Assembly: GCA_965368975.1 (NCBI GenBank)
Contig: CBDUPA010000022.1
Coordinates: 1-64,000 of the forward strand
Length of the DNA: 64,000 nucleotides
Origin: an uncultured bacterium
GTDB lineage: Bacteria; Acidobacteriota; Thermoanaerobaculia; Multivoradales; JAHZIX01
Direction: 5' to 3'
Positions 6,001-29,509 of this stretch are shown here, piece after piece (position 1 is the stretch's first letter; every line of letters begins with the position of its first letter). The notes under the pieces were generated by a model. The model ran no database searches. It was not told the origin of the DNA and saw only the letters and a list, made by a program, of their open reading frames with translations. The position numbers and the translations under genes were made by a program.

Positions 6001-8583
6001 GGCCGGGGTCGGCGCGAGACGGAAGGGCTGATCGGCTTCTTCACCAACACCCTGGTGCTACGCGCACGGCTCGACCCCGGCCTGCGCGGTGACGAGCTGC
6101 TGCGCCGGCAACGCACCGCCGCGCTCGCAGCCTACGACCACCAGGACATTCCCTTCGAGCGCTTGGTCGACGAGCTCCAGCCGGCCCGTGCCCTCAGCCA
6201 CCAGCCGCTGTTCCAGGTGCTCGTCTCGTTGCAGGCTTCGAGTTTTGGGGGCCTTGCCGCGAGCTTGCCCGGCCTCGATGTCGAGGTTCTCGATGTCGAC
6301 CGTGGCAGCGCCAAGTTCGACATCGCTCTCTTCTTGCGCCAGGAGGAGAGGGCCAGCTTCGCCGGTGGCTTCGAGTTCAACCTGGCCCTCTTCGACCGCA
6401 GCACGATCGAACGCCTGCGCCACCACACCGAGTCCTTCCTGCGCGCCCTGCTGCAGCGGCCCGAGGTGCCGATCGACGCACTGTCGCTGCTGTCGGCGAG
6501 TCAGCGTCAGCAACTGCTGCGCGAGTGGCAAGGCTTGCCCCTGGCCCGGACAGCGCGCCCTTCCTACCGTCCCGTCCAGCGTGCCGTCCTCGACTTCGCC
6601 GACGCTACCCCGGACGCCACCGCCCTGCTGTTCTACGCCGGCTTCGCCGGAGCTCCCTATCCGGGCACCCTCAGCTACGGCGAACTGGCGCGCTACGTGC
6701 GCCGTCTGGCCGCCTGGCTGCAACGTCCCAAAGCGGGACCTGCCGGCGTCAGTCCTGCGGGTGTCGGTTCCGCGCGTGTTGGCTTGGGGCATGTCGTCGC
6801 CGTCGTCTGCGGACGCTGCCCGGAACTCTTCATCGCCCTGCTCGCCACCCTCGAAGCCGGCGCCGCCTTCCTGCCCGTCGACCCCACCTACCCGCAAGCG
6901 CGGCGTGACTTCATGCTCGAAGATAGCGGCGCCACCATCGTGCTGACCCAGCGCGACATCCAGGCCGCCCTGGTCTCGACCCGTGGTGAAGCCGACGCCA
7001 TCCTCGCTGCCGCCACTGCCCGCGCCGCCGCGCGCGCCGCTGCCCGCGCCACCGGGCGTGCTACTGCAGCGAATCCACCCAGTGTCGACACGCCGGCCTA
7101 CGTCATCTATACCTCCGGCTCCACCGGTCGTCCGAAAGGTACCGTCGTTGGCCACCACACCCTCGGCAACCTGCTGCACTGGCAGCACCGGCGCACGCGG
7201 GAGCTGCACGGTGCGGCGCAGAAGGATCGCCCCCTGCGCACCCTGCAGTTCAGCTCGCCCAGCTTCGATGTCGCCCAGCAGGAGATCTTCGCCACCTGGC
7301 AAGCCGGCGGCACTCTCGTCCTGCTCGGCCACGGCGAGCGCCGCGACCCCACCCAAGTCCTGCGCCGTCTCGCCGAAGCCGGCGTCGAGCGTCTGTTCCT
7401 GCCCTTCGTCGCGCTGCAACAGCTGGCCGAGCTCGTCCACGCCGGTGTCCACCGTCACGAGTTGCCCACCCAGCTGCGCGAAGTCGTCACCGCGGGCGAG
7501 CAGCTGCGCGTCACCCCGCAGCTGCGCGGCCTCTTCCGTCGCCTGCCCGGCTGCCGCTTGTGGAACCACTACGGCCCTTCCGAGACGCACGTGGTCACCA
7601 CCGAGCTGCTGGTCGACGATCCCCAAGCCTGGGACGACCTCCCCGCCATCGGTCGCCCCATCGACGCCACCACCGTCTACCTGCTGCCTCCGTCCACCGC
7701 CCCCAGCCGCGAACCCGTGCCGCCCGGTGTCGCCGGTGAGATGTGCCTGGCTGGTCAAGCCCCCGGATTCGGCTACCTGCGCCGCCCCGCCGCCACCGCC
7801 CGTGTCTTCGTGCCGGACCCCTTCAGCGAAGATCCCGGCGCCCGCATCTACCGCAGCGGCGACCTCGCCCGCACCCGCCCCGATGGCCGCCTCGACTTCC
7901 TCGGCCGTGCTGACCACCAGGTCAAGGTGCGTGGCTTCCGCGTCGAGTTGGGGGAGATCGAGGCGGTCCTGAGTCGCCTGCCACAACTGCGCGACGCGGT
8001 CGTCGTGGCGCGCGAAGATGTTCCCGGCGACAAGCGCCTGGTGGCCTACCTGCTCGCTGCCGCAGGCGTCGACCTGGAAGATCCGGCGACCGTCGCCCAG
8101 CTGAAAGACCAGCTGAGCGTCGAGTTGCCAGAGCACATGCTGCCGTCCGTCCTGATGCCGCTGGAGACCCTGCCCTTGCTGCCGAGCGGCAAGGTGGACC
8201 GCAAGGCGTTGCCAGCGCCGACGCTGGTCAAGACGGGGGCGGCGTATGTGGCGCCGGAGAACGAAGTTGAGACGGTGATCGCGGGGGTGTGGAAGGAGGT
8301 TCTGCACCTGGAGCAGGTCGGCGTCGAGGACAATTTCTTCGAGATCGGTGGTAGTTCCCTGTTGATCGTCCAGCTGCGCAGCCGTCTGCAGGAAGCGCTA
8401 GGACGCCAGATCCCGCTGGTCGAGCTGTTCCAGTATCCGACGGTGCGGGCGATGGGGGAGCGGTTCGGGAAGGGGGAAGGAGAGGCGGAGGAGAAGTCAG
8501 AGGCGTTGGAGGCGGTGCAGGATCGAGGGAAGGCGCGGAAGAAGTCGTTGGCGCGGTTGAAGAAGAAACGGCGGCGGCGGTAG
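1..8583 (+). CDS. Non-ribosomal peptide synthetase, 5'-truncated by the window; A-PCP-C-A-PCP-C-A-PCP, no thioesterase
   Basis: Frame is open from base 1 (GNGERIALVHGRQHLSYSEL...). Three YTSGSTGRPKG A-domain cores. PCP motifs FFALGGHSLL, FFDLGGHSLL, FFEIGGSSLL. C-domain motifs HHIAADGWS and HHLVSDAWS. Specificity residues read by eye: DFWNIGMV (Thr), DIFDNALT (Ala-like), DVQFVAHV (Pro). Confidence 0.97.
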   Translation, partial: GNGERIALVHGRQHLSYSELCRRAEALAVELRQHGAGPERVVGLCLPRSVELVVAILGTLQAGAAYLPLDPAYPEERRQFSLADGGAVAVVEMEEGYLSISDAAAPQGTHTGVPLHQSREGGLAYLLYTSGSTGRPKGVLIPQSNVLRLLDATDPWFHFGPDDTWTLFHSYAFDFSVWELWGALAYGGRLVIVPYLVSREPARFHRLLAEQRVTVLNQTPSAFRPLIEADAGVAAEGAPRLPLRRVIFGGEALEPAALRPWVERYGDEQPQLVNMYGITETTVHVTHRRLHRRDVEGKAPASLIGPASLIGRAIPDLRLYVLDRHAQPVPIGVVGELYVGSEPGHDAGLARGYHGRPALTAQRFVPDPFADRTPAPGGPRLYRSGDLVRHRGDGDLEYLGRADHQVKVRGFRIELGEIEAALAALESVREAAVLVQELGGDSRLVAFVVGDSFDPTELRQGLLEHLPDHMVPALFVPLDRLPLTPNGKLDRKALRALDVEVPALVERVPPRDDLEARIAALWSEVLGVGEVGVYDDFFALGGHSLLALQLLGRMRRELDVEVPLARLFETPTVAGLAFYIAERRGASNIAERRTVTADSLALPPLLPLDHPATTSGTAPLSFAQQRLWLLHQLDPASSAYHVPLVLELRGALDIAALQHALDTLVARHAVLRTRFQTSADGEPVQHIDLPSPLPLPVCVLPCDLEAEAVDAWVRWAIRQPFDLEHTGEQAGPLRASLLRLPAGPRERHLLVLVLHHIAADGWSLGVLLRELGAAYRGLVLPPLPLQYADFARWQRAALHEVEAAELTYWRQRLAGLPPLLELPTDRPRPAVRRDAGARVAVRFTPPQVETLQQLARAHGATLFSVLLAGFMAWLGRLTGARDVAVGTPVAGRDPVDVEPLIGFFVNTLVLRGDLSGEPSGTPTFEQFLGHLQTATLADVSHRALPFERLVEALSPERATAHTPLFQVMLALQNAPLAAPELPGVEVRVREIDPGSSKFDLTLGLVQQDGRDGAPPGDLWGALEYATDLFDATTIRRWTAQLQRLLLAAARAPSTPLAALSLLSPAEQQTVAHEWPAMASVPNTQDLFPHRIAAQVRAQPDAVALVHETHHLSYREIWRRATSLAADLRRRGVGPEVPVAVCLRRAPRLLVTLLAVLESGGFYVPLDPTYPSERLRFTLDDAGAVLLLTERRLDTLTADLDVPRLDLDSLDSEASNREPGSSTCPAAPANLAYTIYTSGSTGRPKGVAIVHASTAGLVEWTARTYSTAELQGVLAATSVCFDISVFELFVTLSLGGRIVLAENALALPSLPAASAVRLVDTVPSAVAELLRGADADAGGHPRGLPAGVLTVNLAGETVSRDLLRRLEAGIGPRAINLYGPSEDTTFSTWAVVSDPARGVLSTLDDTSSVSIGRMLDGGSGWVLDRVDQPVPIGVAGELLVGGLGVSRGYIGRPSLTASRYVPDAHSREIGSRLYRTGDLVRWRTDGSLSFLGRIDHQVKVRGFRIELGEIEARLDRHPALASAAAGVRRWPSGDQLVAYVVAHAGVARPSVAELRAFLAETLPAHLVPARWRWLDAMPLTPNGKTDRRALAALLWEEATGGEDGTGVPDGEAAVPPEGPVEELLASLWRATLSLPVATPVHRASNFFDLGGHSLLATRVANRVREQLDVVLPLAEVFAAPTLAELAARVEALRSAGSGVAVPPLVPGADGDPGGGDRTAPLSFAQERLWFIEQLQPGNFAYNVPLALVLTERAAGALRVERLAAALASVCRRHEALRTTFAEVNGRPRQVIAPASSVPLHLALPCVDLERLPADVLGPESRRLATREARRVFDLQAGPLVRGVVVRRPCSTAAAGTGLLLLTLHHLVSDAWSFDILLAEVAAHLREQELPPLPVQYADFATWQRRDEVREQLFDRQLDYWRRQLAGVPEALDLPFDHPRPAVQTWAGSAVPWALPASLCRDLDTFGRRHGYTPFMLLSAAFQAVLGRYANARDVCTGMPIAGRGRRETEGLIGFFTNTLVLRARLDPGLRGDELLRRQRTAALAAYDHQDIPFERLVDELQPARALSHQPLFQVLVSLQASSFGGLAASLPGLDVEVLDVDRGSAKFDIALFLRQEERASFAGGFEFNLALFDRSTIERLRHHTESFLRALLQRPEVPIDALSLLSASQRQQLLREWQGLPLARTARPSYRPVQRAVLDFADATPDATALLFYAGFAGAPYPGTLSYGELARYVRRLAAWLQRPKAGPAGVSPAGVGSARVGLGHVVAVVCGRCPELFIALLATLEAGAAFLPVDPTYPQARRDFMLEDSGATIVLTQRDIQAALVSTRGEADAILAAATARAAARAAARATGRATAANPPSVDTPAYVIYTSGSTGRPKGTVVGHHTLGNLLHWQHRRTRELHGAAQKDRPLRTLQFSSPSFDVAQQEIFATWQAGGTLVLLGHGERRDPTQVLRRLAEAGVERLFLPFVALQQLAELVHAGVHRHELPTQLREVVTAGEQLRVTPQLRGLFRRLPGCRLWNHYGPSETHVVTTELLVDDPQAWDDLPAIGRPIDATTVYLLPPSTAPSREPVPPGVAGEMCLAGQAPGFGYLRRPAATARVFVPDPFSEDPGARIYRSGDLARTRPDGRLDFLGRADHQVKVRGFRVELGEIEAVLSRLPQLRDAVVVAREDVPGDKRLVAYLLAAAGVDLEDPATVAQLKDQLSVELPEHMLPSVLMPLETLPLLPSGKVDRKALPAPTLVKTGAAYVAPENEVETVIAGVWKEVLHLEQVGVEDNFFEIGGSSLLIVQLRSRLQEALGRQIPLVELFQYPTVRAMGERFGKGEGEAEEKSEALEAVQDRGKARKKSLARLKKKRRRR
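321..347 (-). repeat. GTAG-family REP-like palindrome inside the NRPS coding sequence
   Basis: Minus strand reads TGTAG-GGGCACCC-CCGTGT-GGGTGCCC, the same layout as the intergenic copy at 17143-17169. Confidence 0.6.
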
Positions 8584-19364: not shown

Positions 19365-19631
19365 TCATGGGGTCTCCAGCTCGATCAACTGATCGGCGGC
19401 GAGTTGGTCGAGCAAGGATCGCAGGTCGCGGCGCAGGCGCTCCGGTGCCACCTCGAATTCGTCCAGCAGCGCGGCCTGGACGGCTTCGACATCCCGCAAC
19501 TCGTCGAGCAACTGCCAGATGCGCGTGCCCACTTCGTCGAGGCCGAAGTACTTCTGGCTGCGCAGGTCGAGCAGCACAGACTCGCCGTCGAGCTCGCGGA
19601 ACAGAACTTGTTGAGAGGGGGTAGCGCGCAT
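19365..19631 (-). CDS. PqqD-family RiPP recognition element (lasso B1-type)
   Basis: About 88 aa; VLFRELDGESVLLDLRSQKYFGLDEVGTRIWQLL...EFEVAPERLRRDLRSLLDQL. Start position uncertain. Confidence 0.88.
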   Translation of the reverse strand: MRATPSQQVLFRELDGESVLLDLRSQKYFGLDEVGTRIWQLLDELRDVEAVQAALLDEFEVAPERLRRDLRSLLDQLAADQLIELETP

Positions 19632-19683
19632 CTGGATCTCCGGCGCCAGTTTAGCAGCCGGCGATGGACGATAATATGACGCC

Positions 19684-20268
19684 ATGTTCCAGATCAAAAG
19701 CCCGTCCCTCCTCCTGCTCGCCGTGACCGTGTTCGTGGGCAGCGTCGCCGTCTTGCAGTTCGGCTGCGCCACCGTGCGGGGTCCCGAACGTCTCGACGGC
19801 TATCGTCAAGCTCTCGACGCCAGCGTCGCCTCGGCTTCCGGTCACCTGGACGCCGAGGCCGCGCGCCAGCGCTTCGCTGCCTTCTATGCCGAGTTCACCC
19901 CCGAGGCCGTGCGCCGCAACGTGCCCGAGGTGTTCGCGCCGGATGCCTACCTCAACGACTACCTGCACGAAGCGCATGGCCGTGAGGCTGTCGCCGCCTA
20001 CCTGAGCCAGGTCGCGGAGGACTTCGTCGACGCGTCCTTCGTCGTCGAGGGAGTGGCGCACAACGACATCGACTACTACTTCCGCTGGACCATGTCGTTC
20101 CGCCTGCGTGGCAACGAGGACGACCCACCCCTGACCTCTCCCGGCGTCTCGCACGTGCGTTTCGACGCCGAGGGCCGCATTCTCTTCGAGGCGGATCATT
20201 GGGACCTCAATGCCGTTTACGAGCGCATCCCGGGGGTGGCGGCAGTCGTGCGCAAGCTACGTCAGTGA
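19684..20268 (+). CDS. SnoaL/NTF2-like exported protein, possibly a lipoprotein
   Basis: Hydrophobic N-terminus ending FGC; FAPDAYLND...HGREAVAAYL, GVSHVRFDAEGRI...DHWD. Confidence 0.75.
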   Translation: MFQIKSPSLLLLAVTVFVGSVAVLQFGCATVRGPERLDGYRQALDASVASASGHLDAEAARQRFAAFYAEFTPEAVRRNVPEVFAPDAYLNDYLHEAHGREAVAAYLSQVAEDFVDASFVVEGVAHNDIDYYFRWTMSFRLRGNEDDPPLTSPGVSHVRFDAEGRILFEADHWDLNAVYERIPGVAAVVRKLRQ

Positions 20269-20338
20269 CCGGTGCCTGGCAGTGATCGGTGCCTTCGCTA
20301 CGTTACGTGTCCGTATCGAAGCTTTCTCACCTTTACGC

Positions 20339-20367
20339 TTGACAGCAGGCGTCATCGTGGTGAAACT
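20339..20367 (+). promoter_or_regulatory. Putative sigma70 promoter of the RiPP-like operon
   Basis: TTGACA-N17-GAAACT, about 80 nt upstream of the precursor ATG. Confidence 0.45.
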
Positions 20368-20447
20368 GAATGGCAAACTCTGATCACCCAACCTGTGTCG
20401 AGTTCCACGGCTCGCCGTGTCTCGATCGCCGTCCTGGAGAGATCGCC

Positions 20448-20768
20448 ATGAGCTGGAACCAAGCCCCCTCCGTACAGCCTGAGACCCCGAACCCGGTCAT
20501 CCCCTCCTACCGCGCCGCCTACGATGGTGCCAAGACAGCCAAGCCGGAAGTGATCACCGAGGTGGCTCCGGAAGTGAAGCCGGAGATCATCACCGAGGTT
20601 GCACCCGAGGTGAAGGGCGAGATCATCACCGAGGTGGCACCGGAAGTGTCCAAGGAGATCAAGCGCAGGCCCGAAGTGATCGTCGAAGTGGCGCCCGAGC
20701 TGTCCCACGAGAAGGTCAAGAAGATCGCCAAGGAAGTGATCGTCGAGGTAGCGCCGGAGACCAAGTAA
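20448..20768 (+). CDS. Putative multi-core RiPP precursor peptide (106 aa) with five E[VI]I[TV]EVAPE repeats
   Basis: GGAGAG RBS; ~30-aa non-repetitive leader, then PEVITEVAPEV, KPEIITEVAPEV, KGEIITEVAPEV, RPEVIVEVAPEL, KEVIVEVAPETK. Repeats vary at synonymous positions. Only 4 nt separate it from the next gene. Confidence 0.75.
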   Translation: MSWNQAPSVQPETPNPVIPSYRAAYDGAKTAKPEVITEVAPEVKPEIITEVAPEVKGEIITEVAPEVSKEIKRRPEVIVEVAPELSHEKVKKIAKEVIVEVAPETK

Positions 20769-20772
20769 CTCC

Positions 20773-23700
20773 ATGGCGGGGGACCGAGAGCGGCTGCTGC
20801 GGCTCTTGCTCCGCCAGGGCATTCTCCATGCATCGCCGACGCAGCCGGTGCGTTCCCGCGACGGAACGCCGGCGCGTTGGATGCTCGATTCTCTCGGCGT
20901 CACGTTGGAGGGAGAGGGGCTGCAGCTGGCCGCGCGGTGCCTGCTGCCCCTGCTCGCTCGTTTCGAAGGCCGGCAGATCGCCACCTTTGGCACCACCGCC
21001 ATCCCGCTGGTCGCCGCCTGTGTCGCGGCCTCGGAGGGCCGCTACCACGGGTTGCTGGTGCGCAAAGAGCGTAAGCCGCACGGCTCTTCCAAGCGCATCG
21101 AGGGCCGCATCGAGCGCGACGAGCCGGTCATCCTGCTCGACGACTCGGTGAGTTCCGGCACCGCCATGACCGACGGGCGGCACCACCTGGAGAAAGCCGG
21201 CCTGTGGGTCGAGGGCGGTGTCTGCCTGGTGCGCTTCGGCTGGGACCGCGGCATCGCGCGCATGATGCAAGACGGCCTGCACATGGAAGCCGTCTTCGAC
21301 ATCTACGACGACGTCATGGCCGGCATGGACGCCGAGCCCGACCCGCTGGCCAATCCCACCAAGGTGTTGCCGGCGATTTGCTGGAGCGCCGAGTCGGCTC
21401 CTGAGGGCCTGCACCCCGCGCACCTGGCGCGCCGTGTCATGGAGCACCGCTTGCGGACCGGCGAGCTGCTACGCCCTCCCGCGACCCTCGACACCAATTA
21501 TGATTCCAGCGGTGGTGCCTACGTCAGCGTACGCGACCGCGAGCAGATCTACCAGCGCTACGGCCGCGAGGGTTTTTGGCACTTTCCTGAAGAGTTATCA
21601 GCGGCTCCGCCCAAGGACGCCATCTCCCCGGTCTTTCAAGAACTCCCCCCTTCCGCGCCGCGCGACGTCGTTCTCGCCGCGCACAAGACCCTCGCCCTGC
21701 TGCCCGAAGGCGAGGAAGGCCTGGCGACGCTCGACCGCAGCCTGCTCGCCGTCACCCTCTTCTCGGCGCTCGAGAGCTGCACCGTAGGCCAGCTCGACAA
21801 CCAGCGCTACGGCATCGTCGTGCGCAGCCGCGAGCGCACCGGCGTCATGGGCGGTGCCTTGCCTCGCATGCCCGGCCTGCGCGACAGCTGGGGCCAGTTC
21901 CAGCACGCGCGCATCAAGAACGGCAAGCTGATCTCCTTCGAGCCCTACGAAGTCCTGCGTCACGACGTCACCAAGCTCGTCGAGCCGGGCGCCCACTGGC
22001 AGCCCACCGGTGTGCCCAGGTCCGCTGAGACACCCTGGTTCGAAGACGCCGACATCGCCGGCCGCGTGGCTTTGAGGGTACGGCAAGTGGCGTTGAGCGA
22101 GATGCTCGGTGAATCGACAGCCAGCTCCGTAGAGCTGCCCAGCTTGCCCGAGACCTTCGACTCAGTGTTCGTTTCCGTCTACGTGCGCGGCCGGCTGCGC
22201 GGGTGTGTCGGTAGCTCGTGTGGGGCGGACGCGGGAGCCAGCCCGGACGAGCTGGAGGCGACGCTGCAGCAGCTCGTGCCCCTGGCCCTCGAAGACGGAC
22301 GCTTCGACGACGACCTACGTCCCGGCTCGGCGCAAGAACTCGCCGTCACCGTGTCCTTGCTGCACCAGCCCTTGACCCTCGGCGTCATGTCGCCGGCAGA
22401 CGTCATGCCACGCATCCGCCTGGGCGAACAGGCGCTCAAGGTGTCGCAGGGCACACGTGAAGGTCTGCTGCTGCCCTTCGTCGCCAGCTCGCGGCACCCG
22501 CTGGCGCACGACTTCGCCGCCGAGGTCATCGACAAAGCCGGCGTCACCCGGCCGCCCTACACCTGGCACCGTTGGGAATGCGCCACCTGGCTGGCGGACG
22601 CGTTTCACGGTGCTTCCGAAGAAAGAATGCACGGAACACCCCGCCAGCTGCGCGGGACGTTTCCACCCATTCCGCCCGGCGACGACTCGCCTGCACAGCG
22701 TGTGCAGCGTCTCACCGACCTCTACGCGCGCTACCTGCTGCGTCACCAGAAGACCGATGAGGAGGACGCCGGCAGCTTCTATTTCCGCTACAAGCCGCAT
22801 CCGAACGTGCTGGTCGACGGCATCGACGTGCCGCGTCTGGCGCACACCGCCTGGACCCTCGCGCGCGCCGCCCGCCTGCTCGATCGAGACGACCTGCGCC
22901 AGGCCACGGATCGTACCGTCGTGCACCTGCTGGCCCTGTGCCGCTGTTTCGACCCCAGCGACGATGCGCATGGCGGCTGGTGGCTCGAGCGTGAGGGCGA
23001 GCAGCCGCACGCGGCCATCGCCGAAGTCGCGTTCCTGCTGCTGGCGCTGTGCGAACGCGCCGACGATGCGGGCCAGCCCCCGGCACCGGAAGAGGTCCGC
23101 ATGGCGCCGCGCCTGGCCGGAACGCTGTGGGCGTCGATCGACCGTCTCGGCTACATCAGCACCCACCGTATCGACCACGGCGGCCCGGGCAGCCTGTCCA
23201 GGGACGACCTCGAGGCGTACCAGAACTTCTATCCCGGCCAGGCGCTGCTCGCCCTCGCCCGCGCCGCCGAACTCGAGATCCACGTACCTGACCCGCGGCG
23301 CCTTGCCGCTGCCTTCCGGCGGTACCGTCATCGCTACCGGCACCAGCACCACTTCGGCCAGGCGTCGTGGCTGGCGCAGGCCTGGGCTGCCTGGGCGCGG
23401 AGCAGTGGCGAGAACCGGGACGCCTACGCCGCCTTCGTCCACCAGATCGTCGATCATGCTCTGGAGCACCAGGTGCAAGCGCCAGAGCAGAGAGACGTCG
23501 GTGCTTTCCTCACTCCCTTGCAGCAGGGCCCCGGCTTCACCAGCGTGCTTTTCTTGGAGGTACTCGCCGCCGCCATGAGCCTGAGCCTCGAGAGCGAAGT
23601 CGACGAGCGCTACCGCCGCGCTTACCACCTCGGCGTCCGCTTTCTCGATACCTTGACGCTGCAAGAGCCCATGCTGCCATTGCTGCCGGCTCCCGAGTGG

Positions 23701-23814
23701 GCGTACGGTGGCGTGCGTCAAGATCCCTACTACGACGAGATCCGCATCGACTTCGTCAGCCACTCACTGTCCGCGCTGCTGTGGTCCCATCCCGCACCCC
23801 AGGAGTCCTCATGA
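20773..23814 (+). CDS. Multidomain protein: orotate-PRTase-like + two AMMECR1-like domains + C-terminal alpha-helical (alpha/alpha toroid-like) domain
   Basis: PyrE-like LLVRKERKPHGSSKRIEG and PRPP-binding loop VILLDDSVSSGTA. AMMECR1 motifs VFVSVYVRGRLRGCVGS, ALEDGRF, GLLLP..KAG, and a divergent copy (GGAYVSV...YGIVVRS...GGALPRMPG). C-terminal GSFYFRY, FYPGQALLAL, GGVR...IRIDFVSH. Confidence 0.75.
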   Translation: MAGDRERLLRLLLRQGILHASPTQPVRSRDGTPARWMLDSLGVTLEGEGLQLAARCLLPLLARFEGRQIATFGTTAIPLVAACVAASEGRYHGLLVRKERKPHGSSKRIEGRIERDEPVILLDDSVSSGTAMTDGRHHLEKAGLWVEGGVCLVRFGWDRGIARMMQDGLHMEAVFDIYDDVMAGMDAEPDPLANPTKVLPAICWSAESAPEGLHPAHLARRVMEHRLRTGELLRPPATLDTNYDSSGGAYVSVRDREQIYQRYGREGFWHFPEELSAAPPKDAISPVFQELPPSAPRDVVLAAHKTLALLPEGEEGLATLDRSLLAVTLFSALESCTVGQLDNQRYGIVVRSRERTGVMGGALPRMPGLRDSWGQFQHARIKNGKLISFEPYEVLRHDVTKLVEPGAHWQPTGVPRSAETPWFEDADIAGRVALRVRQVALSEMLGESTASSVELPSLPETFDSVFVSVYVRGRLRGCVGSSCGADAGASPDELEATLQQLVPLALEDGRFDDDLRPGSAQELAVTVSLLHQPLTLGVMSPADVMPRIRLGEQALKVSQGTREGLLLPFVASSRHPLAHDFAAEVIDKAGVTRPPYTWHRWECATWLADAFHGASEERMHGTPRQLRGTFPPIPPGDDSPAQRVQRLTDLYARYLLRHQKTDEEDAGSFYFRYKPHPNVLVDGIDVPRLAHTAWTLARAARLLDRDDLRQATDRTVVHLLALCRCFDPSDDAHGGWWLEREGEQPHAAIAEVAFLLLALCERADDAGQPPAPEEVRMAPRLAGTLWASIDRLGYISTHRIDHGGPGSLSRDDLEAYQNFYPGQALLALARAAELEIHVPDPRRLAAAFRRYRHRYRHQHHFGQASWLAQAWAAWARSSGENRDAYAAFVHQIVDHALEHQVQAPEQRDVGAFLTPLQQGPGFTSVLFLEVLAAAMSLSLESEVDERYRRAYHLGVRFLDTLTLQEPMLPLLPAPEWAYGGVRQDPYYDEIRIDFVSHSLSALLWSHPAPQESS

Positions 23815-25736
23815 CCGCGCCCCCCATACAGCGCCACGGGCCCCTGCTCGAACTGCGCCCGCAGGACGGCGATGCGTCGCAGCCGGATGTCGACGCCAGC
23901 TTCCCCGTTGCCCTGATCAGCATGCCCACCCTGGCGCCGCACTTCCCGAGCTTCCAGCTGGGCTTGCTCCAACCCACCCTCGAACGCGCCGGCATCGCCG
24001 TCCAGCCCTTCAGTCTCTTCCTCTACTTCGGTGCCCACATCGGCTGGTCCCTCAACGACGCCCTGTCCGCCGTGCGTCCGTGTATGGCCGGCGAGTGGAT
24101 CTGGTCCAAAGCCGCCTTCGGCGAGTTCTCGGATGCCGACGAATACCTGCAGCACTACGCCCGCAACTTCGCCCAGATCTGCCAGGGCGCCGGCTGCACC
24201 CTCGACGACCTGCACCGCGTGCGCGACGAGCAGACCTTCACCTTCCTGGACGCCATGCTCGATGCCGTCGACTGGAGCCGCTTCCAGCTGATCGGTTTCA
24301 CCGTCGTCTTCCAGCAGATGGTCGCCAGCCTCGCCTTCGCCCGCCGCCTCAAAGAGCGCCACCCTGACATTCCGATCATCTTCGGCGGGGCCACCTTCGA
24401 AGACGACATCGCCGAAGGCATCTTCGACGCCAGCCCCTGGATCGACTACATCCACTGCGGCGACGCTGACGACACCTTCCCCGAGCTGGTGCGACGCCTC
24501 AAAGCAGGTGAGTCGATGGACGGCATGACCGGCATCCGCTGGCGTGACCAGGATGGAGTGCCTCAATTCGCTGGCCGTGCCCCCAACCTGCACAATCTCG
24601 ACCAGACCCCGGTGCCGTCCTACGACGAGTACTTCTTCGCCCGCCGTCAGAGCGGCTATGACGCCTACACCCAGGCCAAGGGCTCCATGATCCCCATCGA
24701 AACCGCACGCGGCTGCTGGTGGGGCATGAAGCAGCACTGCACTTTCTGCGGCCTCAACCGCTCTGGCATGCACTTCCGCGCCAAGAGCGTCGACGGCGTG
24801 CTCGACATGCTGGCCGACCTGAGCCGCAAGTACGGCATCCTGCACTTCGACGCCATCGACAACATCATGGCCCCGGAGTACCTAGAGCAGCTCTTCGGCC
24901 AGCTCGCGGACGCTCACACCGACGTCCAGATCCACTACGAAGTGCGGCCCTACCTCAGCCGCGATCAACTGCGCGAACTCAAGCGCGGCGGCCTCTATTC
25001 AGTGCAGCCTGGCATCGAGAGCCTGAACACCCACGTGCTGAAACTGATGCGCAAGCACAGCACCGGCGTCAACAACCTCAGTTTCATGAAGTGGTGCACC
25101 TACTTCGGCATCAACAATCTCTACAACCTGCTGATGGGTTTTCCGGGCGAGACGGTCGAAGACTACGAGCAGCAGCTGGAAGTCATCGCCAAGATCCCCC
25201 ACTTCCAAGCCCCCTACGGCGTCGCCCGTGCCCGTGCCGATCGCGGCTCTCCCATGTACACCGAGCCCGACCAGCACGGCATCCTCAACCTACACCCCAG
25301 CTGGTGCTACCAGCACATCTACCCCCCGGATCGCTACGACCTGGCGAAGGTCTCGTATTACTTCGATCACGAGCTGGACGGTGAGCTGCCCAAGGAGGTC
25401 TATGAGCAGACCTTCAACGCCGTCTACGAGTGGCAAGCCCGCTGGCACTCGCGTCCGCGGCCATCGCTAACGTACTCCAAGAGCTGGAAGACCCTGGTGC
25501 TTTCCGATCAACGCGGATTGCCGGGCCTTCCCACCCGCGTCACCCTACAGAACCGCGCCGCGGACCTCTACGAGTTCTGCCATGAGCCCAAGGGGCTGGC
25601 GTCGGTGGTGCGGCACTTCGAGGGCGATGAAGCCTGGGTCCAGGCGATGCTTGCGGAGCTGTGCGGCATGGACTTGATGATCCACCTGGACGGGCGGTAT
25701 CTGAGCTTGGCGCTGCCGGAGAATCCTTATTACTGA
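23811..25736 (+). CDS. RiPP maturation B12-dependent (class B) radical SAM enzyme, probable C-methyltransferase (PoyC/TIGR03975-like)
   Basis: Start at 23811 (ATGA overlap, AGGAG RBS); VALISMP...PSFQLGLL; B12-binding LIGFTVVFQQ...IIFGGA; ETARGCWWGMKQHCTFCGLN (Cx7Cx2C); DNI; VQPGIES; YNLLMGFPGE. Confidence 0.9.
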   Translation: MTAPPIQRHGPLLELRPQDGDASQPDVDASFPVALISMPTLAPHFPSFQLGLLQPTLERAGIAVQPFSLFLYFGAHIGWSLNDALSAVRPCMAGEWIWSKAAFGEFSDADEYLQHYARNFAQICQGAGCTLDDLHRVRDEQTFTFLDAMLDAVDWSRFQLIGFTVVFQQMVASLAFARRLKERHPDIPIIFGGATFEDDIAEGIFDASPWIDYIHCGDADDTFPELVRRLKAGESMDGMTGIRWRDQDGVPQFAGRAPNLHNLDQTPVPSYDEYFFARRQSGYDAYTQAKGSMIPIETARGCWWGMKQHCTFCGLNRSGMHFRAKSVDGVLDMLADLSRKYGILHFDAIDNIMAPEYLEQLFGQLADAHTDVQIHYEVRPYLSRDQLRELKRGGLYSVQPGIESLNTHVLKLMRKHSTGVNNLSFMKWCTYFGINNLYNLLMGFPGETVEDYEQQLEVIAKIPHFQAPYGVARARADRGSPMYTEPDQHGILNLHPSWCYQHIYPPDRYDLAKVSYYFDHELDGELPKEVYEQTFNAVYEWQARWHSRPRPSLTYSKSWKTLVLSDQRGLPGLPTRVTLQNRAADLYEFCHEPKGLASVVRHFEGDEAWVQAMLAELCGMDLMIHLDGRYLSLALPENPYY

Positions 25737-25789
25737 GTTCGCTCCGGAGGTGTGAAGTGAATATTACTCACCAAGGGTATACCACGCAG

Positions 25790-26566
25790 TCACCTGCCTC
25801 GATTCGTGCCAGCCGGGCAACTCCGTTCCGCCAGATACCGTTCGACGAACTCGAAGTACTCCGGCGACGTGCAGGCGGCGACTTTGCGGCAGGTGGTGTC
25901 GAACTCGAGATGCTGGCTGGCGGCGAAGTCACGGAGCGTGTCGAGTGCCATCAGCATTCCGGGTAGATCTTGGGCTTTGACCGCGGCGGCCGTCAGCGCT
26001 CGTCGCAACGCGACTTCGGGTAACTCTTCGCCAGTGCGCGTGAGCCCGAAGGCATAGGCGGAGATGCGCTGAGCCAGGTGAGGGCGCTGGAGTAGGAAGC
26101 GTTCGGCGGCGTCCTGCGACTCGCGATCGGTGACCAGGTAGTGGTCCAGGAACTCGGCGAAGAGCGAATCGGGCTTCGTCGAGTCGTGAGGCTGCGATCT
26201 GTTCAGCTGACGCAGCATGCCCTGCAGTTTCGCGTCCCGAGCTTGCGGCAGGGTGCTGGGAATCGACGAGCGGTTGCGGAAGTAGGCGAAGCCGATGCCG
26301 CACGCGACGAAGCTGAGAAGGAGGGGCGCGAACCACAGGTCGTTGAGGTCTCGGTTTGTGCCCCAGACGGCGAGTGCGAACAGGAGGGGGAAGGCGAGCA
26401 GACCAGCCAGGGCGATGTTGTTGGCGCGCTGCAAGTCGCGCAGTTGTTCGGGTTGGAGGTGCTGGTTCATCAGCTCCGTGGAGGTTCGCAGGTTGTAACC
26501 GCCCAGGAGGACGAGTGCCGCGTAGACAACATAAGCTCCTATTCCGTACAGCCAGCCTTCCATCAT
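25790..26566 (-). CDS. Hypothetical membrane protein
   Basis: Three hydrophobic segments in the N-terminal half, then a soluble domain; abuts the upstream gene's stop codon. Confidence 0.6.
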   Translation of the reverse strand: MMEGWLYGIGAYVVYAALVLLGGYNLRTSTELMNQHLQPEQLRDLQRANNIALAGLLAFPLLFALAVWGTNRDLNDLWFAPLLLSFVACGIGFAYFRNRSSIPSTLPQARDAKLQGMLRQLNRSQPHDSTKPDSLFAEFLDHYLVTDRESQDAAERFLLQRPHLAQRISAYAFGLTRTGEELPEVALRRALTAAAVKAQDLPGMLMALDTLRDFAASQHLEFDTTCRKVAACTSPEYFEFVERYLAERSCPAGTNRGR

Positions 26567-29434
26567 CTAGTCTCCTGTTCGTAGCACGCGGGCCAGACCG
26601 CATCGCTCGTAGGCCCCGAAACCGAACGCCAGTCCCTGGAACATCTGGTCGGCACCCTTCCACCAACCGGACGCGTTGCCCAGGTAGTCGGCCCACCAGC
26701 CGGCCAGGCTGGGATTATCGAAGGCGGCGCGGCCGAGGGTGCACAGGTCGATGGCTGGAGTGGCAGTGGGGTCCAGCTCGTGGGCTTGCAGCAGCCAGGC
26801 GATCGTGTGGGGACGGTTGGGGCCGAGGATGCTGAGACCATCGCCGTTGTCGAACCAGGTACAGCTGTTCACCTGCGTTCCACCCCCGGTCAGACTACAG
26901 CTCATGAGCGCCGCCCAGTCGGCATTGACGTCGATGGCGCCGCCGGGACCTTGCATCATGCCCTGCTGGTAATAGACCAACGGCGCTTCGATCAGCGACC
27001 GTTGTAGGCCGCCGAAATCCCCGTAGTTGCGCAGCATGCGGTGGAAGAAGAGGAAGTGCATGGCGTTCTGCATGAACTGCTGGGGCTGGTCGCAGGTGTT
27101 GGCGTTGGGAATGTCGCCCTGGCAGAGTAGTCCGGCACGCAGGTTGTCTTGCCCTAGCTCAGCGAGAATCTCTTGCAGACGATCGTGGCAGGCTTGGCCC
27201 GCCGCGCCGGGGACGAACTCGGCACAGTTGGCCAGCATCTCGAAGTGCTGGATCACCTGACGCGTGATGTCGACCTGATCGACGAACGCCTCGCGCAAGC
27301 CTTGCTGAGCTTGCGGCAGGCTGTAGCGATTGGTCATGGTGATGCCAGCTTGACGGAACCGGTCGCGCAGCGCGGGACTGGGGCGCAGCAGGTAGGCGAG
27401 TTGCAGGCCTTGGTTGTAGCTGTAGTCGTCCGAGCCGAAGGCGCTGCGGTGCCACTGACCCTCGCCGCTGCCACCGGAGGTCACCGCGACGCCGGCGCGG
27501 TTGCCGTGACTCTGGTTGCCGATGTTGAGATAGGCGGTGTGCGTTTGCAGCCAGCTCTGCGGCAAGGCGAAATCCCAGGCCCAGCGTGGGTGGCCGCTGC
27601 GCAGGAACTCGAGCAACTCGGTGCCGCTGGGATTCCAGTAGTTCATCGCGCCGCTGTTGCTCGCCGGGTCGGGATTGTCGATCAGCCACAGGTCGCGCTG
27701 CACGTCGGGCCACAGCTGCGAGCCGAAGGTCTTGGCACGGTGCCACTGTCCGTTCGGGGCGGCGCCGACGGTCTGCCCGTGCAGCTCGCCGAGCAGCTGG
27801 AGGTAGGTGGTCTCGGTGGCGGACGGCGTGCCGGTACCGGCGCCCAACGTGGGCAGGACGCTGGCGCGGTCGAAGCGACTGCGGTAGGTGCGCACCAGCA
27901 GACCGCGTTCGAGTTCGTCGACAGCCTCGGTGCGCAGCGCCTCGACGTCCGCAATCGCGTTCGCGAAAGGGCCTCCGGAGGGGCCGGGTAGCAGGCTCAG
28001 GCGGGCTTGATTCCACAGGCCCTTGCCTTCGCCGACGACCAGGCTCTCGCTGATCACGCGCAGCGACAGCGTCGAGCCCTGGGCCACGATCGCTTGTGGC
28101 TCTCGGTAGCGCATCCAGGCGAGGTTGAGCGCGGCGAGTAGGTGGTTGCCGCCCAGGGGGCCAGCAGTCTGACCCTGGATCGCCAGCACCGGGCGATCGA
28201 AAGCCTGCGCGGTCTGCTGGTCGACGCTGTTCAGGCGGATGCGCGCGCGACGCTGCCACGGCGAGCCGGTGCCCTTGCGCTGCTCGACGTCCACGGTGCC
28301 GGCACCGAAAGTCGTGACCGCACCGGCGCCGCCGGCATGGGCGCTGACCTGGGTCCAGCCGAGGGGCAACTCCCAGGACGCTCGGTGCACGGTGACGGCG
28401 TCGTCGGTCCAGGGACCGGAGTTGGCGTCGCTACACTCGTTGCGCAGGTGGAATTCCAGCAGCACGTGACGGCTGGCGCGCTGGAAGGTGGCGACGAGGG
28501 TGTAGCCGAAGCGTTCGTAGTCGGTGGGGCCGCTGGTGCACAGGCTGGCGCCGGTACCGGAGGAGAAGTGCCCGTCGAGTGCCACGGTCACCTTGGCCGG
28601 GCCGTTCTCCAGGATGCGGAAGCTGCCGGCATCGACGGTCACCTGCCCGGGCGTCGCGGTGCTCAGGGTCAGCGGAGTTCCACCGTTGTCGAAACTCAGG
28701 TACGGACCGGCGCCGGCGACATGACTGTAGACCGGAATGCGCGTGGCGCTGTCGATGTCGTTGGGGTTGACGCCGATGGCGTGGAACAGGGCGGGATTGG
28801 CGGCATCCAGTTCGAAGGTCGCCAGGCCGGTGTCGGCCATAAAGCGGCTCGTTGCCGGAACCGGCGTGATGCTGGCGGCGAAAGGCGTCGCGCTCGAAGC
28901 GGGTGTTTCCATGCGCCGCAGGGCGACTCGCACGAACGCCGGATTGTTCGCACTACCGGCACCGACGTGTGCGGGGAAGACCACCTGTAGCCAACGGATT
29001 GGCAAGCTGGTGTCGTCCACCGGACCGCCCCAGCGCGCAAGAACGTCGAATTGCGCCTCGAGGCGGCGTTGACCGCTGCCGGCGACGATCAAGGCGTCCG
29101 TCGAGGTCAGCCCCAGGTCGCGGGCGATCGGGATCGCCGACCAGGCGAGTTCACGACCGCGCGCTCGCGGCCTGTCGTTGAACACTTCCAGGCAGGCCAG
29201 CTCCTGGAACGAGCCGGCCGGCACCGCGCCCGGACTGCCGTCCAGGGCGCTGGTGATCACGGGGCCTTCGAGGCAACTGGCGCCGAGGCCGAAGACGCGC
29301 TGGAAGTCGCCGGTCTCACCGGTCTCGAAGCCGGTGATGTTGAGGGCTTGGCTTTGGCCGGCACACGGTGGCGGAGTCCAGCAGAGCGCCAGCGAAGCCG
29401 CCAGCGCAACGAGGTGGGCAATTCTGCACTTCAT
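26567..29434 (-). CDS. Large secreted protein, possibly PcRGLX/YetA-like polysaccharide lyase or hydrolase
   Basis: Signal peptide MKCRIAHLVALAASLALCW; AQFDVLARWGG...IRWLQV; ILENGPAKVTV; helical C-terminal part. Family assignment is tentative. Confidence 0.55.
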   Translation of the reverse strand: MKCRIAHLVALAASLALCWTPPPCAGQSQALNITGFETGETGDFQRVFGLGASCLEGPVITSALDGSPGAVPAGSFQELACLEVFNDRPRARGRELAWSAIPIARDLGLTSTDALIVAGSGQRRLEAQFDVLARWGGPVDDTSLPIRWLQVVFPAHVGAGSANNPAFVRVALRRMETPASSATPFAASITPVPATSRFMADTGLATFELDAANPALFHAIGVNPNDIDSATRIPVYSHVAGAGPYLSFDNGGTPLTLSTATPGQVTVDAGSFRILENGPAKVTVALDGHFSSGTGASLCTSGPTDYERFGYTLVATFQRASRHVLLEFHLRNECSDANSGPWTDDAVTVHRASWELPLGWTQVSAHAGGAGAVTTFGAGTVDVEQRKGTGSPWQRRARIRLNSVDQQTAQAFDRPVLAIQGQTAGPLGGNHLLAALNLAWMRYREPQAIVAQGSTLSLRVISESLVVGEGKGLWNQARLSLLPGPSGGPFANAIADVEALRTEAVDELERGLLVRTYRSRFDRASVLPTLGAGTGTPSATETTYLQLLGELHGQTVGAAPNGQWHRAKTFGSQLWPDVQRDLWLIDNPDPASNSGAMNYWNPSGTELLEFLRSGHPRWAWDFALPQSWLQTHTAYLNIGNQSHGNRAGVAVTSGGSGEGQWHRSAFGSDDYSYNQGLQLAYLLRPSPALRDRFRQAGITMTNRYSLPQAQQGLREAFVDQVDITRQVIQHFEMLANCAEFVPGAAGQACHDRLQEILAELGQDNLRAGLLCQGDIPNANTCDQPQQFMQNAMHFLFFHRMLRNYGDFGGLQRSLIEAPLVYYQQGMMQGPGGAIDVNADWAALMSCSLTGGGTQVNSCTWFDNGDGLSILGPNRPHTIAWLLQAHELDPTATPAIDLCTLGRAAFDNPSLAGWWADYLGNASGWWKGADQMFQGLAFGFGAYERCGLARVLRTGD

Positions 29435-29509
29435 GGGTTCTCCCTGGGAACGAAGGCAAACTGTAGGAGCTTCTGTACTGCAGTTCGCGCTTACGCGCAC
29501 GGGTTCGAC

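Follow-up and report, generated by a model that had tools for sequence, protein, structure and literature searches.

A four-domain phosphoribosyltransferase–AMMECR1–AMMECR1–toroid fusion encoded between a repeat peptide and a B12-binding radical SAM enzyme, a candidate signature enzyme of a peptide-modifying gene cassette

We analyzed a stretch of 64,000 nucleotides, hereafter the window, from an uncultured bacterium of the Acidobacteriota (NCBI GenBank assembly GCA_965368975.1, contig CBDUPA010000022.1, positions 1 to 64,000 of the forward strand), whose genome comprises 7.13 Mb in 59 contigs and is 99.3% complete. The window contains a gene for a four-domain fusion protein, preceded by a gene for a repeat peptide and followed by one for a radical S-adenosylmethionine (SAM) enzyme. 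The coordinates of the three genes, and of the fusion domains D1 to D4, are the following:

20448..20768, + strand: repeat-peptide gene, 106 amino acids from the ATG at 20448, with GGAG 6 nt upstream
20773..23814, + strand: four-domain fusion (P0001), open frame of 1013 amino acids
20773..21342, + strand: D1, type I phosphoribosyltransferase (PRT) resembling orotate phosphoribosyltransferase (OPRT), residues 1–190
21346..22056, + strand: D2, predicted degenerate AMMECR1 fold, residues 192–428
22057..22614, + strand: D3, canonical AMMECR1 domain, residues 429–614
22636..23811, + strand: D4, predicted (alpha/alpha)6 toroid, residues 622–1013
23808..25736, + strand: B12-binding radical SAM enzyme of family TIGR03975 (maturation radical SAM C-methyltransferase for peptides synthesized ribosomally and modified post-translationally, RiPPs), its ATG overlapping the fusion stop

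The fusion is an intact, real four-domain protein. The three genes are tightly packed, the fusion ATG lying 4 nt past the stop codon of the peptide gene and the fusion stop overlapping the start of the radical SAM gene. Residue conservation was assessed in an alignment of 70 full-length fusion members, with identities measured against the window protein. D1 and D2 are the best-conserved parts, with mean identities of 59.6% (38 of 190 columns invariant) and 58.9% (45 of 237 columns invariant), respectively, while D3 and D4 average 42.0% and 40.5%. A first-pass annotation of this DNA, made from the letters and their open reading frames (ORFs), had read the protein as four parts, and this division is borne out by family profiles, AlphaFold2 (AF2) models and fold matches obtained with Foldseek (taken at E ≤ 0.001).

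D1 corresponds to the PyrE-like region that had been placed at residues ~1–185 with an intact catalytic loop and phosphoribosyl pyrophosphate (PRPP) motif, a description with which both profile and structure-database searches agree. The NCBIfam pyrE model TIGR00336 matches residues 39–177 (E 1.8e-13, 50.6 bits, under the cut-off of 106.8 bits), and a whole-genome search with the same model scored the fusion at 55 bits, also under the cut-off. Against PDB sequences, D1 matches the OPRTs 2p1z (3.5e-8), human 2wns (7e-7) and 5hkf (2.2e-6). The catalytic loop, RKERKPHG, occupies residues 97–104 and the PRPP motif, LLDDSVSSGT, residues 121–130; R97, K101, G104, E110, G111, S125, S128 and G129 are invariant (70/70), D123 is Asp in 66 of 70 members (Glu in 4) and D124 is Asp in 69 of 70. 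The PRPP motif and the Lys/Arg-rich flexible loop are thus common to D1 and OPRTs (PyrE, TIGR00336), whereas D1 departs from them in scoring below the family cut-off, in being fused to three further domains, in a four-residue insertion ahead of its SRDG segment, and in having VRFGW where OPRTs have VDR. In alignments to 2wns and 5hkf, VRFGW faces the OPRT (V/L)DR segment, with a 2-residue insertion. We take (V/L)DR to be the orotate-binding (acceptor) segment of OPRTs and, because it is remodelled in D1, the acceptor of D1 is probably not orotate.

These comparisons bear on two readings of D1. According to the first, the fusion is an ordinary OPRT (pyrE) joined by chance to other domains, as might be supposed because OPRTs are what D1 matches best in NCBIfam and among PDB sequences, and because some sources name homologues 'orotate phosphoribosyltransferase'. 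The score of 50.6 bits against a cut-off of 106.8, the acceptor-site region unlike that of OPRTs and the occurrence of the gene in merely one of 30 same-order relatives all contradict it. A canonical pyrE, moreover, lies elsewhere in the genome (contig C2, 290242–290694, 123.8 bits, over the TIGR00336 cut-off), and for this reason the fusion is not the organism's housekeeping pyrE; we regard the ordinary-OPRT reading as essentially excluded. According to the second, D1 is a non-catalytic module for PRPP or nucleotide sensing, for binding or for scaffolding, and the chemistry on the repeat protein is left to the radical SAM enzyme, the toroid and the AMMECR1 domains alone. PRT-like domains in some regulators are non-catalytic modules of this kind, and the score under the pyrE cut-off, the remodelled acceptor region (VRFGW for VDR) and the presence of same-clade PRT-like domains in several other multidomain proteins would suit such a role. 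However, the loop Lys/Arg residues and both acidic residues of the PRPP motif are kept in 66–70 of 70 members across phyla, and few parts of the protein are as well conserved as this domain, which would be unusual for a decayed active site. We therefore consider a non-catalytic D1 unlikely.

The only Pfam domain found in the whole window protein is AMMECR1, which covers residues 458–599 within D3 (E 1.2e-15, 57.8 bits against a cut-off of 25). D3 contains the motifs R476-G-C478-V-G480 (RGChG) and D508-G-R510-F511 (DxRa), with G477, C478, G480, D508, R510 and F511 kept in 70 of 70 members and R476 in 58. RGChG and DxRa were proposed as the AMMECR1 active site by Balaji and Aravind (PMC2034487), and by its sequence D3 appears to keep that proposed site. 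The domain thus passes the Pfam threshold and carries both motifs, in line with the first-pass description of a canonical AMMECR1 with LRGCVG.

D2, in turn, has no Pfam or NCBIfam match in the window protein. A profile of the 70 D2 sequences searched against PDB sequences returned a single match, the AMMECR1 protein PH0010 (1vaj, E 0.089), in an alignment that pairs D2 RxGFWHFP with LRGCIGFP. The AF2 model of D2 (mean predicted local distance difference test, pLDDT, 91.6; predicted TM-score, pTM, 0.87) has as its sole Foldseek matches five chains of 1zq7, 1vaj and 1wsc, all AMMECR1 (probability 1.00, TM 0.42–0.62), and Pfam assigns AMMECR1 to the D2 region in two distant members, P0182 and P0228. 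On the strength of the profile match, the Foldseek matches and these two Pfam calls, D2 is predicted to adopt an AMMECR1 fold without the Arg and Cys of RGChG. The segment lying over RGChG is R265-E-G267-F268-W269, with Phe268 at the Cys position and Asp/Glu at the Arg position. The divergent AMMECR1 that had been proposed here, with YGREG where LRGCIG is expected, is consistent with both the 1vaj alignment and the AMMECR1-only Foldseek matches. The link between D2 and D3 came from the fold search; sequence alone did not give it, an hhalign comparison of the two profiles having a probability of 3.6%. The invariant polar residues of D2 include R254, R262, R265, E334, N343, Y346, Q375, N383, E390, R396, H397, K401, E404, W409 and Q410. 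The window D2 also carries an insertion of ~16 residues (PKDAISPVFQELPPSA) at 21613–21660, residues ~281–296, which is common only to the window protein and the 86%-identical P0002, the latter with an extra EEIGP repeat there; its pLDDT of ~79 makes it less confident than the rest of the model.

The resemblance to AmmeMemoRadiSam/AMMECR1 proteins (PF01871, TIGR04335; 1vaj, 1zq7, 1wsc) extends to the D3 motifs, the D2 fold and a radical SAM gene as the usual neighbor. The fusion differs in that its AMMECR1 fold occurs twice in tandem, with the Cys missing from the first copy, and in that a gene for a candidate peptide substrate lies next to it. D3 scores 60.3 bits against TIGR04335 (AmmeMemoRadiSam protein A), under the cut-off of 99, and there was no Pfam match to Memo among the 12 neighboring window proteins scanned. 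The adjacent radical SAM enzyme belongs to the B12-dependent TIGR03975, a different class from that of AmmeMemoRadiSam, which we take to be of the activase-like TIGR04337 type. Because D3 falls under the cut-off, no Memo partner was found among those neighbors and the radical SAM class is another, the cassette does not belong to the AmmeMemoRadiSam system, and the setting outside that context envisaged by the first-pass annotation is confirmed. The same genome has a stand-alone canonical AMMECR1 gene on contig C31 (1859–2395, − strand, 147 bits to PF01871).

D4 was modelled by AF2 as an all-helical domain (pLDDT 93.9). Its 122 Foldseek matches are all alpha/alpha toroids, comprising epimerases of the N-acylglucosamine 2-epimerase (AGE) family, glycoside hydrolases of families GH88 and GH76, and type II terpene cyclases. 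In a structural re-alignment (VIA), the top match is cellobiose 2-epimerase 4z4l (Z 29.4, rmsd 3.0 Å, 324 residues aligned), followed by a single-domain squalene-hopene cyclase (Z 27.1) and GH76 (Z ~25); 727 of 991 chains reach Z ≥ 8, and among the rows listed all are of the toroid type. The domain contains the motifs YPGQ (820–823) and RIDFVSH (991–997), and R688, Q817, Q823, R854, W866, Q900, Q917, E929, D993 and H997 are invariant (70/70). The helical C-terminal region with YPGQ and RIDxxxH noted earlier at residues ~640–1010 is thus recovered as a toroid model in which both motifs are conserved. Searches of D4 against PDB sequences, of the 70 members against Pfam, and of the ESM Atlas gave no significant family match. 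Weak leads to the toroid clan appeared in Pfam for a few members (TED in 6 of 70; GlcNAc_2-epim, PF07221, in 3 of 70, best E 0.021; SQHop_cyclase_C in 2 of 70), and the ESM Atlas returned unnamed clusters at 0.93. We conclude that D4 is a new sequence family and, as modelled, an (alpha/alpha)6 toroid. The AGE-superfamily epimerases and isomerases (cellobiose 2-epimerase, YihS, GlcNAc 2-epimerase) provide its best structural match, but identity to them is 10–14%, the PF07221 matches are weak, and terpene cyclases and GH76 score merely 2–4 Z units lower.

To define how widely this architecture occurs, we searched for relatives at several levels. A word-indexed search found 645 proteins homologous to the fusion at E ≤ 0.001, the best 120 of which are all 932–1051 amino acids long, with query coverage of at least 96% and identities of 46–86%; where homologues are named, they are called 'AMMECR1 domain-containing protein' or 'orotate phosphoribosyltransferase'. 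A one-genome-per-species pattern scan yielded 154 relatives, mostly in metagenome-assembled genomes (MAGs) of Pyrinomonadaceae, Blastocatellia and other Acidobacteriota. The remaining carriers are Thiothrix/Thiotrichaceae, Alphaproteobacteria, Actinomycetota (including the isolate Mycobacterium sp. OAS707), Myxococcales (Myxococcota) and an Omnitrophota MAG. An exhaustive search with a D2 profile hidden Markov model recovered 369 cluster representatives at E ≤ 0.001, 104 of them at E ≤ 1e-30, and among those listed nearly all are ~860–1015 amino acids long with D2 at about residues 200–420. The architecture is therefore a large, widespread, unnamed family and not a one-off fusion. Close to the window genome it is sparse: among 30 kin genomes, five of the same family and 25 of the same order, the gene was found in one (57% identity) and in none of the five same-family genomes. 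The locus of that single carrier, L083, has the same repeat-peptide ORF as locus L037 of an Acidobacteria MAG, which puts the window in that phylum. Such a patchy distribution is as expected of an accessory gene cluster.

Several variants depart from the four-domain plan. In proteins of 1235–1260 amino acids, such as that of Paraburkholderia caledonica, a PRT domain is followed by a beta-propeller resembling that of pyrroloquinoline quinone (PQQ) enzymes, D2 and a C-terminal part of no assigned family. P0182, a metagenomic protein of 1370 amino acids, consists of PRT, D2, a Cys-less D3, a D4-like part and a C-terminal kinase of the aminoglycoside phosphotransferase (APH) family (PF01636, E 1.1e-18). 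Many of the soil-metagenome loci L089–L164 encode same-clade PRT domains fused to a PQQ-like beta-propeller, a few of which extend into a D2-like domain, and in L134:5296–7560 an Asp/Asn beta-hydroxylase domain (PF05118, E 9.6e-14) is added at the N-terminus. The distant D4-like protein P0132 has an N-terminus of another kind. Natural split forms were considered and rejected, as the shorter matches start inside D3 after the RGC motif and read as truncated or frameshifted gene calls. The architectural variants recovered with the D2 profile keep both D1 and D2, so these two domains together look like the functional core of the fusion.

The gene upstream of the fusion encodes the repeat peptide, which would be 132 amino acids long if translation began at the alternative ATG at 20370. 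Its sequence runs MSWNQ...PEVITEVAPEVKPEIITEVAPEVKGEIITEVAPEV...EVIVEVAPE...EVIVEVAPETK and includes five E(V/I)I(T/V)EVAPE units; the repeat unit is of the type PEVITEVAPEVK. The DNA has a tandem 36-nt period with 78–81% matches, and the repeat copies, read by eye from the DNA, encode the same residues with different codons, which points to selection at the protein level. The same E(V/I)xP units recur in the peptides of different phyla. These peptides range from ~90 to more than 400 amino acids and consist almost entirely of units such as RPIPEVAPEI, PEVITEVAPE, QPEIAPEI and RPEIRPEV, summarized as (P/T/V)-E-(V/I)-(A/K/R)-P, often with a four-residue period. The 39 peptides analyzed total 7477 residues, of which P accounts for 21.1%, E for 15.0%, I for 10.4%, V for 9.3%, A for 7.8%, R for 7.7% and K for 7.1%; they contain 378 E[VI]AP and 304 E[VI][KR]P sites, and up to 35 PE[VI] in one peptide. 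The residue preceding Glu is P (72–86%), T or V, and among the twelve E[VI]-to-E[VI] spacings listed, four residues is the commonest (527), followed by six (104) and twelve (99). What stays constant from repeat to repeat is Glu, Val/Ile and Pro, and of these only Glu has a reactive side chain. Six peptides scanned against Pfam and NCBIfam gave no match. The Mycobacterium peptide has a 44-residue non-repeat N-terminus, whereas in most others a short Lys-rich head is all that precedes the repeats. Peptides of the Thiotrichaceae loci L044, L061 and L075 have a Ser/Gly/Asn-rich N-terminus, Cys residues and the unit KPEIIVEIKPE, with K/R replacing Ala.

We next compared gene content around the fusion in 80 loci retained from the 154 relatives, with context counts restricted to the 45 that span 12 kb or more and the adjacency of the radical SAM gene also counted over all 80. 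The fusion, present in 45/45 of the long loci, is accompanied by the repeat peptide in 44/45 and by the radical SAM gene in 42/45. The window radical SAM enzyme scores 544.8 bits against TIGR03975 (cut-off 281.85) and contains the Pfam domains B12-binding (PF02310) and Radical_SAM (PF04055). A homologue of this type adjoins the fusion in 72 of the 80 loci, at 41–75% identity (51–64% over full-length matches). The eight loci without it are four from Thiotrichaceae, three on short contigs cut at the gene, and one ending just after a downstream peptide gene. The usual gene order is peptide, radical SAM, fusion, whereas the window, the related locus L037 and a few more (L003, L051, L056, L069, L073) have the order peptide, fusion, radical SAM.

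In the Thiotrichaceae loci L044, L061 and L075 (≥12 kb), the peptide lies directly upstream of the fusion and ~7 kb to either side is free of a radical SAM gene. The contig of the fourth locus, L049 (9.9 kb), starts at the fusion gene, and the upstream side falls outside it. Whole-genome searches found no close radical SAM homologue in any of the four Thiotrichaceae MAGs, which may be incomplete, and returned one remote B12-radical-SAM match (27% identity, E 1.2e-12). Peptide and fusion are thus the constant pair of the cassette, and their persistence as a pair without the radical SAM gene is the strongest argument that the peptide, a candidate substrate or precursor of the cassette, is the fusion's own substrate. 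The same observations weigh on the proposal that the role of the fusion is to produce or alter a sugar phosphate or nucleotide in free form, unrelated to the peptide, the two genes being adjacent only through co-regulation. Although a PRT and an epimerase-like toroid would be a plausible small-molecule pair, and the APH-kinase variant points in the same direction, the peptide gene is the most constant neighbor (44/45 loci, at least five phyla), it persists where the radical SAM gene is absent, and the window genes are translationally packed. We judge this proposal very unlikely.

Three further genes recur near the cassette. A 2-oxoglutarate (2OG)-Fe(II) oxygenase of ~200 amino acids lies directly upstream of the peptide in 19/45 long loci, on the same strand (e.g. 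L080:3496–4098, PF13640, E 2e-14), and may serve the Pro-rich repeats as an accessory hydroxylase; a search of the window's genome with this query, resembling prolyl 4-hydroxylase, did not find one. A radical SAM/SPASM protein of TIGR03913 ('GDL motif peptide-associated radical SAM/SPASM maturase') occurs in 14/45 long loci, within a few kb of the cassette (e.g. L066:3369–4844, 825.8 bits), and probably belongs to a separate neighboring RiPP system. A carbamoyltransferase occurs in 11/45. In L044 and L061, the fusion is followed by an ORF of 1049 amino acids that, read by eye from its N-terminal sequence, is like an AcrB-type resistance-nodulation-division pump.

Gene content also informs whether the repeat protein is an end product or a source of units. 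In the manner of PQQ or mycofactocin, a peptide-derived small molecule could be formed, with a unit built or excised from, for example, Glu-Val/Ile, phosphoribosylated by D1 and then acted on as a free intermediate by D3 and D4. The many identical units per precursor (up to 35 PE[VI]) would raise the yield, OPRT-like enzymes normally ribosylate small heterocycles, no exporter is found among the conserved cassette neighbors, and the carbamoyltransferase of 11/45 loci could be accommodated. On the other hand, no conserved protease is present to free the units, recognizable cleavage sites between repeats are absent, and E, V/I and P offer no obvious path to a heterocycle. A peptide-derived small molecule consequently seems improbable to us.

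We favor instead the reading that the fusion is the signature enzyme of an undescribed, compact RiPP-like cassette modifying a ribosomally made repeat protein. That the fusion acts on the repeat protein is, in our judgment, probable; that it does so by PRPP-dependent phosphoribosylation is possible but somewhat doubtful; and the reading as a whole, including the chemistry set out below, has a little less than an even chance of being correct. From the observed domain identities, conservation of catalytic-type residues and gene linkage, a scheme can be drawn in which the substrate, the use of PRPP and each chemical step are conjectural. D1 would bind PRPP and transfer the 5-phosphoribosyl group to a nucleophile in each repeat. 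The acceptor would be the Glu carboxylate or a group derived from Glu, proposed because Glu is the only invariant reactive side chain in the repeat. D2 would position the repeat and/or the phosphoribosyl group beside D1, D1 and D2 forming one working unit. D3, through Cys478, and the epimerase-like toroid D4 would carry out the subsequent processing, either of the pentose now attached or of the residue modified; both the epimerase-like fold of D4 and the APH-type kinase of P0182 fit sugar chemistry. The radical SAM enzyme would methylate unactivated sp3 carbons of V, I, A or P. The first-pass annotation had called the fusion a multi-step tailoring enzyme. The peptide-tailoring idea has strong backing from gene context, the window fusion lying between the peptide and radical SAM genes and these two occurring in 44/45 and 42/45 long loci, respectively; the multi-step part is drawn from the domains and the neighborhood. 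A complex prediction for the Mycobacterium sp. OAS707 homologue (920 amino acids) with residues 1–78 of its own peptide gave a score of 0.22, the mark being 0.32.

By comparison, RiPP pathways with B12-radical-SAM C-methyltransferases, such as that of the proteusin polytheonamide, share with the cassette a small peptide gene adjoining the TIGR03975 enzyme and many repeated units in the precursor. The cassette differs in having no evident nitrile-hydratase or Nif11-type leader, conserved RiPP recognition element (RRE), protease or transporter, and no counterpart of the E-V/I-x-P units or of the PRT/AMMECR1/toroid enzyme was found in the literature searched.

Several observations weigh against the cassette as we interpret it. 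The acceptor pocket of D1, judged from its alignments, differs from that of OPRTs, and we know of no PRT that acts on peptide carboxylates. A sugar-handling role for D4 is not established by the model, because a terpene cyclase (Z 27) and GH76 (Z 25) lie near the top score. Among the cassette neighbors in the 45 long loci there is no conserved RRE, protease or exporter, and the PqqD-like gene of the window is without counterpart in the 80 loci. In the 76 beta-propeller metagenome loci, neither the repeat peptide (as a PE[VI]-rich ORF) nor the window-type radical SAM gene was found (0/76), so a PRT of the D1 clade does not by itself imply a repeat substrate. Finally, the peptides have no obvious leader/core layout and some exceed 300 amino acids; they look more like intrinsically disordered repeat proteins than leader–core precursors. 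For these reasons 'RiPP' may be the wrong frame, and post-translational modification of a protein the better one.

The remaining genes around the cassette in the window are the following:

154–8583, + strand: nonribosomal peptide synthetase (NRPS) ORF of at least 2809 amino acids, with several adenylation, condensation and carrier modules recognized by eye
19365–19772, − strand: orphan PqqD-like RRE gene (PF05402, E 3.3e-19), its start read as an inner Met near 19631
19684–20268, + strand: SnoaL_2-like gene, divergent from the PqqD-like gene and directly upstream of the cassette
25790–26566, − strand: ORF of 258 amino acids, convergent with the cassette, no Pfam or NCBIfam match
26567–29500, − strand: ORF of 977 amino acids, convergent with the cassette, no Pfam or NCBIfam match, with an N-terminal hydrophobic stretch resembling a signal peptide

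The PqqD-like and SnoaL-like genes, purE, the 258- and 977-amino-acid ORFs and a YegS-like kinase recur in none of the 80 loci. The NRPS ORF is not conserved in related loci and, by its position, is unrelated to the cassette. A promoter and terminator scan of 19500–26700 returned no more than expected by chance. A look-up of sequencing runs listed no RNA run as a carrier and six DNA runs with small shares (0.07–0.08).

Full-text literature searches retrieved no description of the fusion, of the repeat peptides or of AMMECR1 with a PRT, though the supplement of PMC2034487, with its AMMECR1 alignments and neighborhoods, may hold related fusions. The AMMECR1 reaction was called uncharacterized in 2007 (PMC2034487), and a later assignment did not turn up in our searches. 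A highly expressed TIGR03975 cluster is described in an Acetobacteraceae MAG (PMC12350317), and TIGR03975 hits were discarded as likely false positives in one study (PMC9426513); in their passages on TIGR03975, both papers treat it merely as a generic RiPP rule. Because the family already stands in databases under uninformative names, the protein as such is not new, whereas the cassette and its implied chemistry appear undescribed. Genome-mining tools would flag the cassette only through the generic TIGR03975 rule.

The present analysis defines a widespread cassette, with 154 relatives in species genomes, mostly of soil Acidobacteriota. Conservation of AMMECR1 extends from archaea to humans, and the cassette ties a pair of AMMECR1 domains to one simple, repetitive candidate substrate across phyla, turning the question of AMMECR1 function into a two- or three-gene system on the scale of co-expression and mass spectrometry. 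The fullest version of our proposal holds that AMMECR1 is a peptide- or protein-modifying domain and that the cassette installs a PRPP-dependent (phospho)pentosylation on the Glu of E-(V/I)-x-P, with the sugar processed by D3 and D4 and carbons methylated. We hold this version to be doubtful. If it were true, the cassette would yield a polyproline-like polymer bearing dense decoration; AMMECR1 would gain its first biochemical function, and the fusion would be the first known instance of a PRT acting on a ribosomal peptide.

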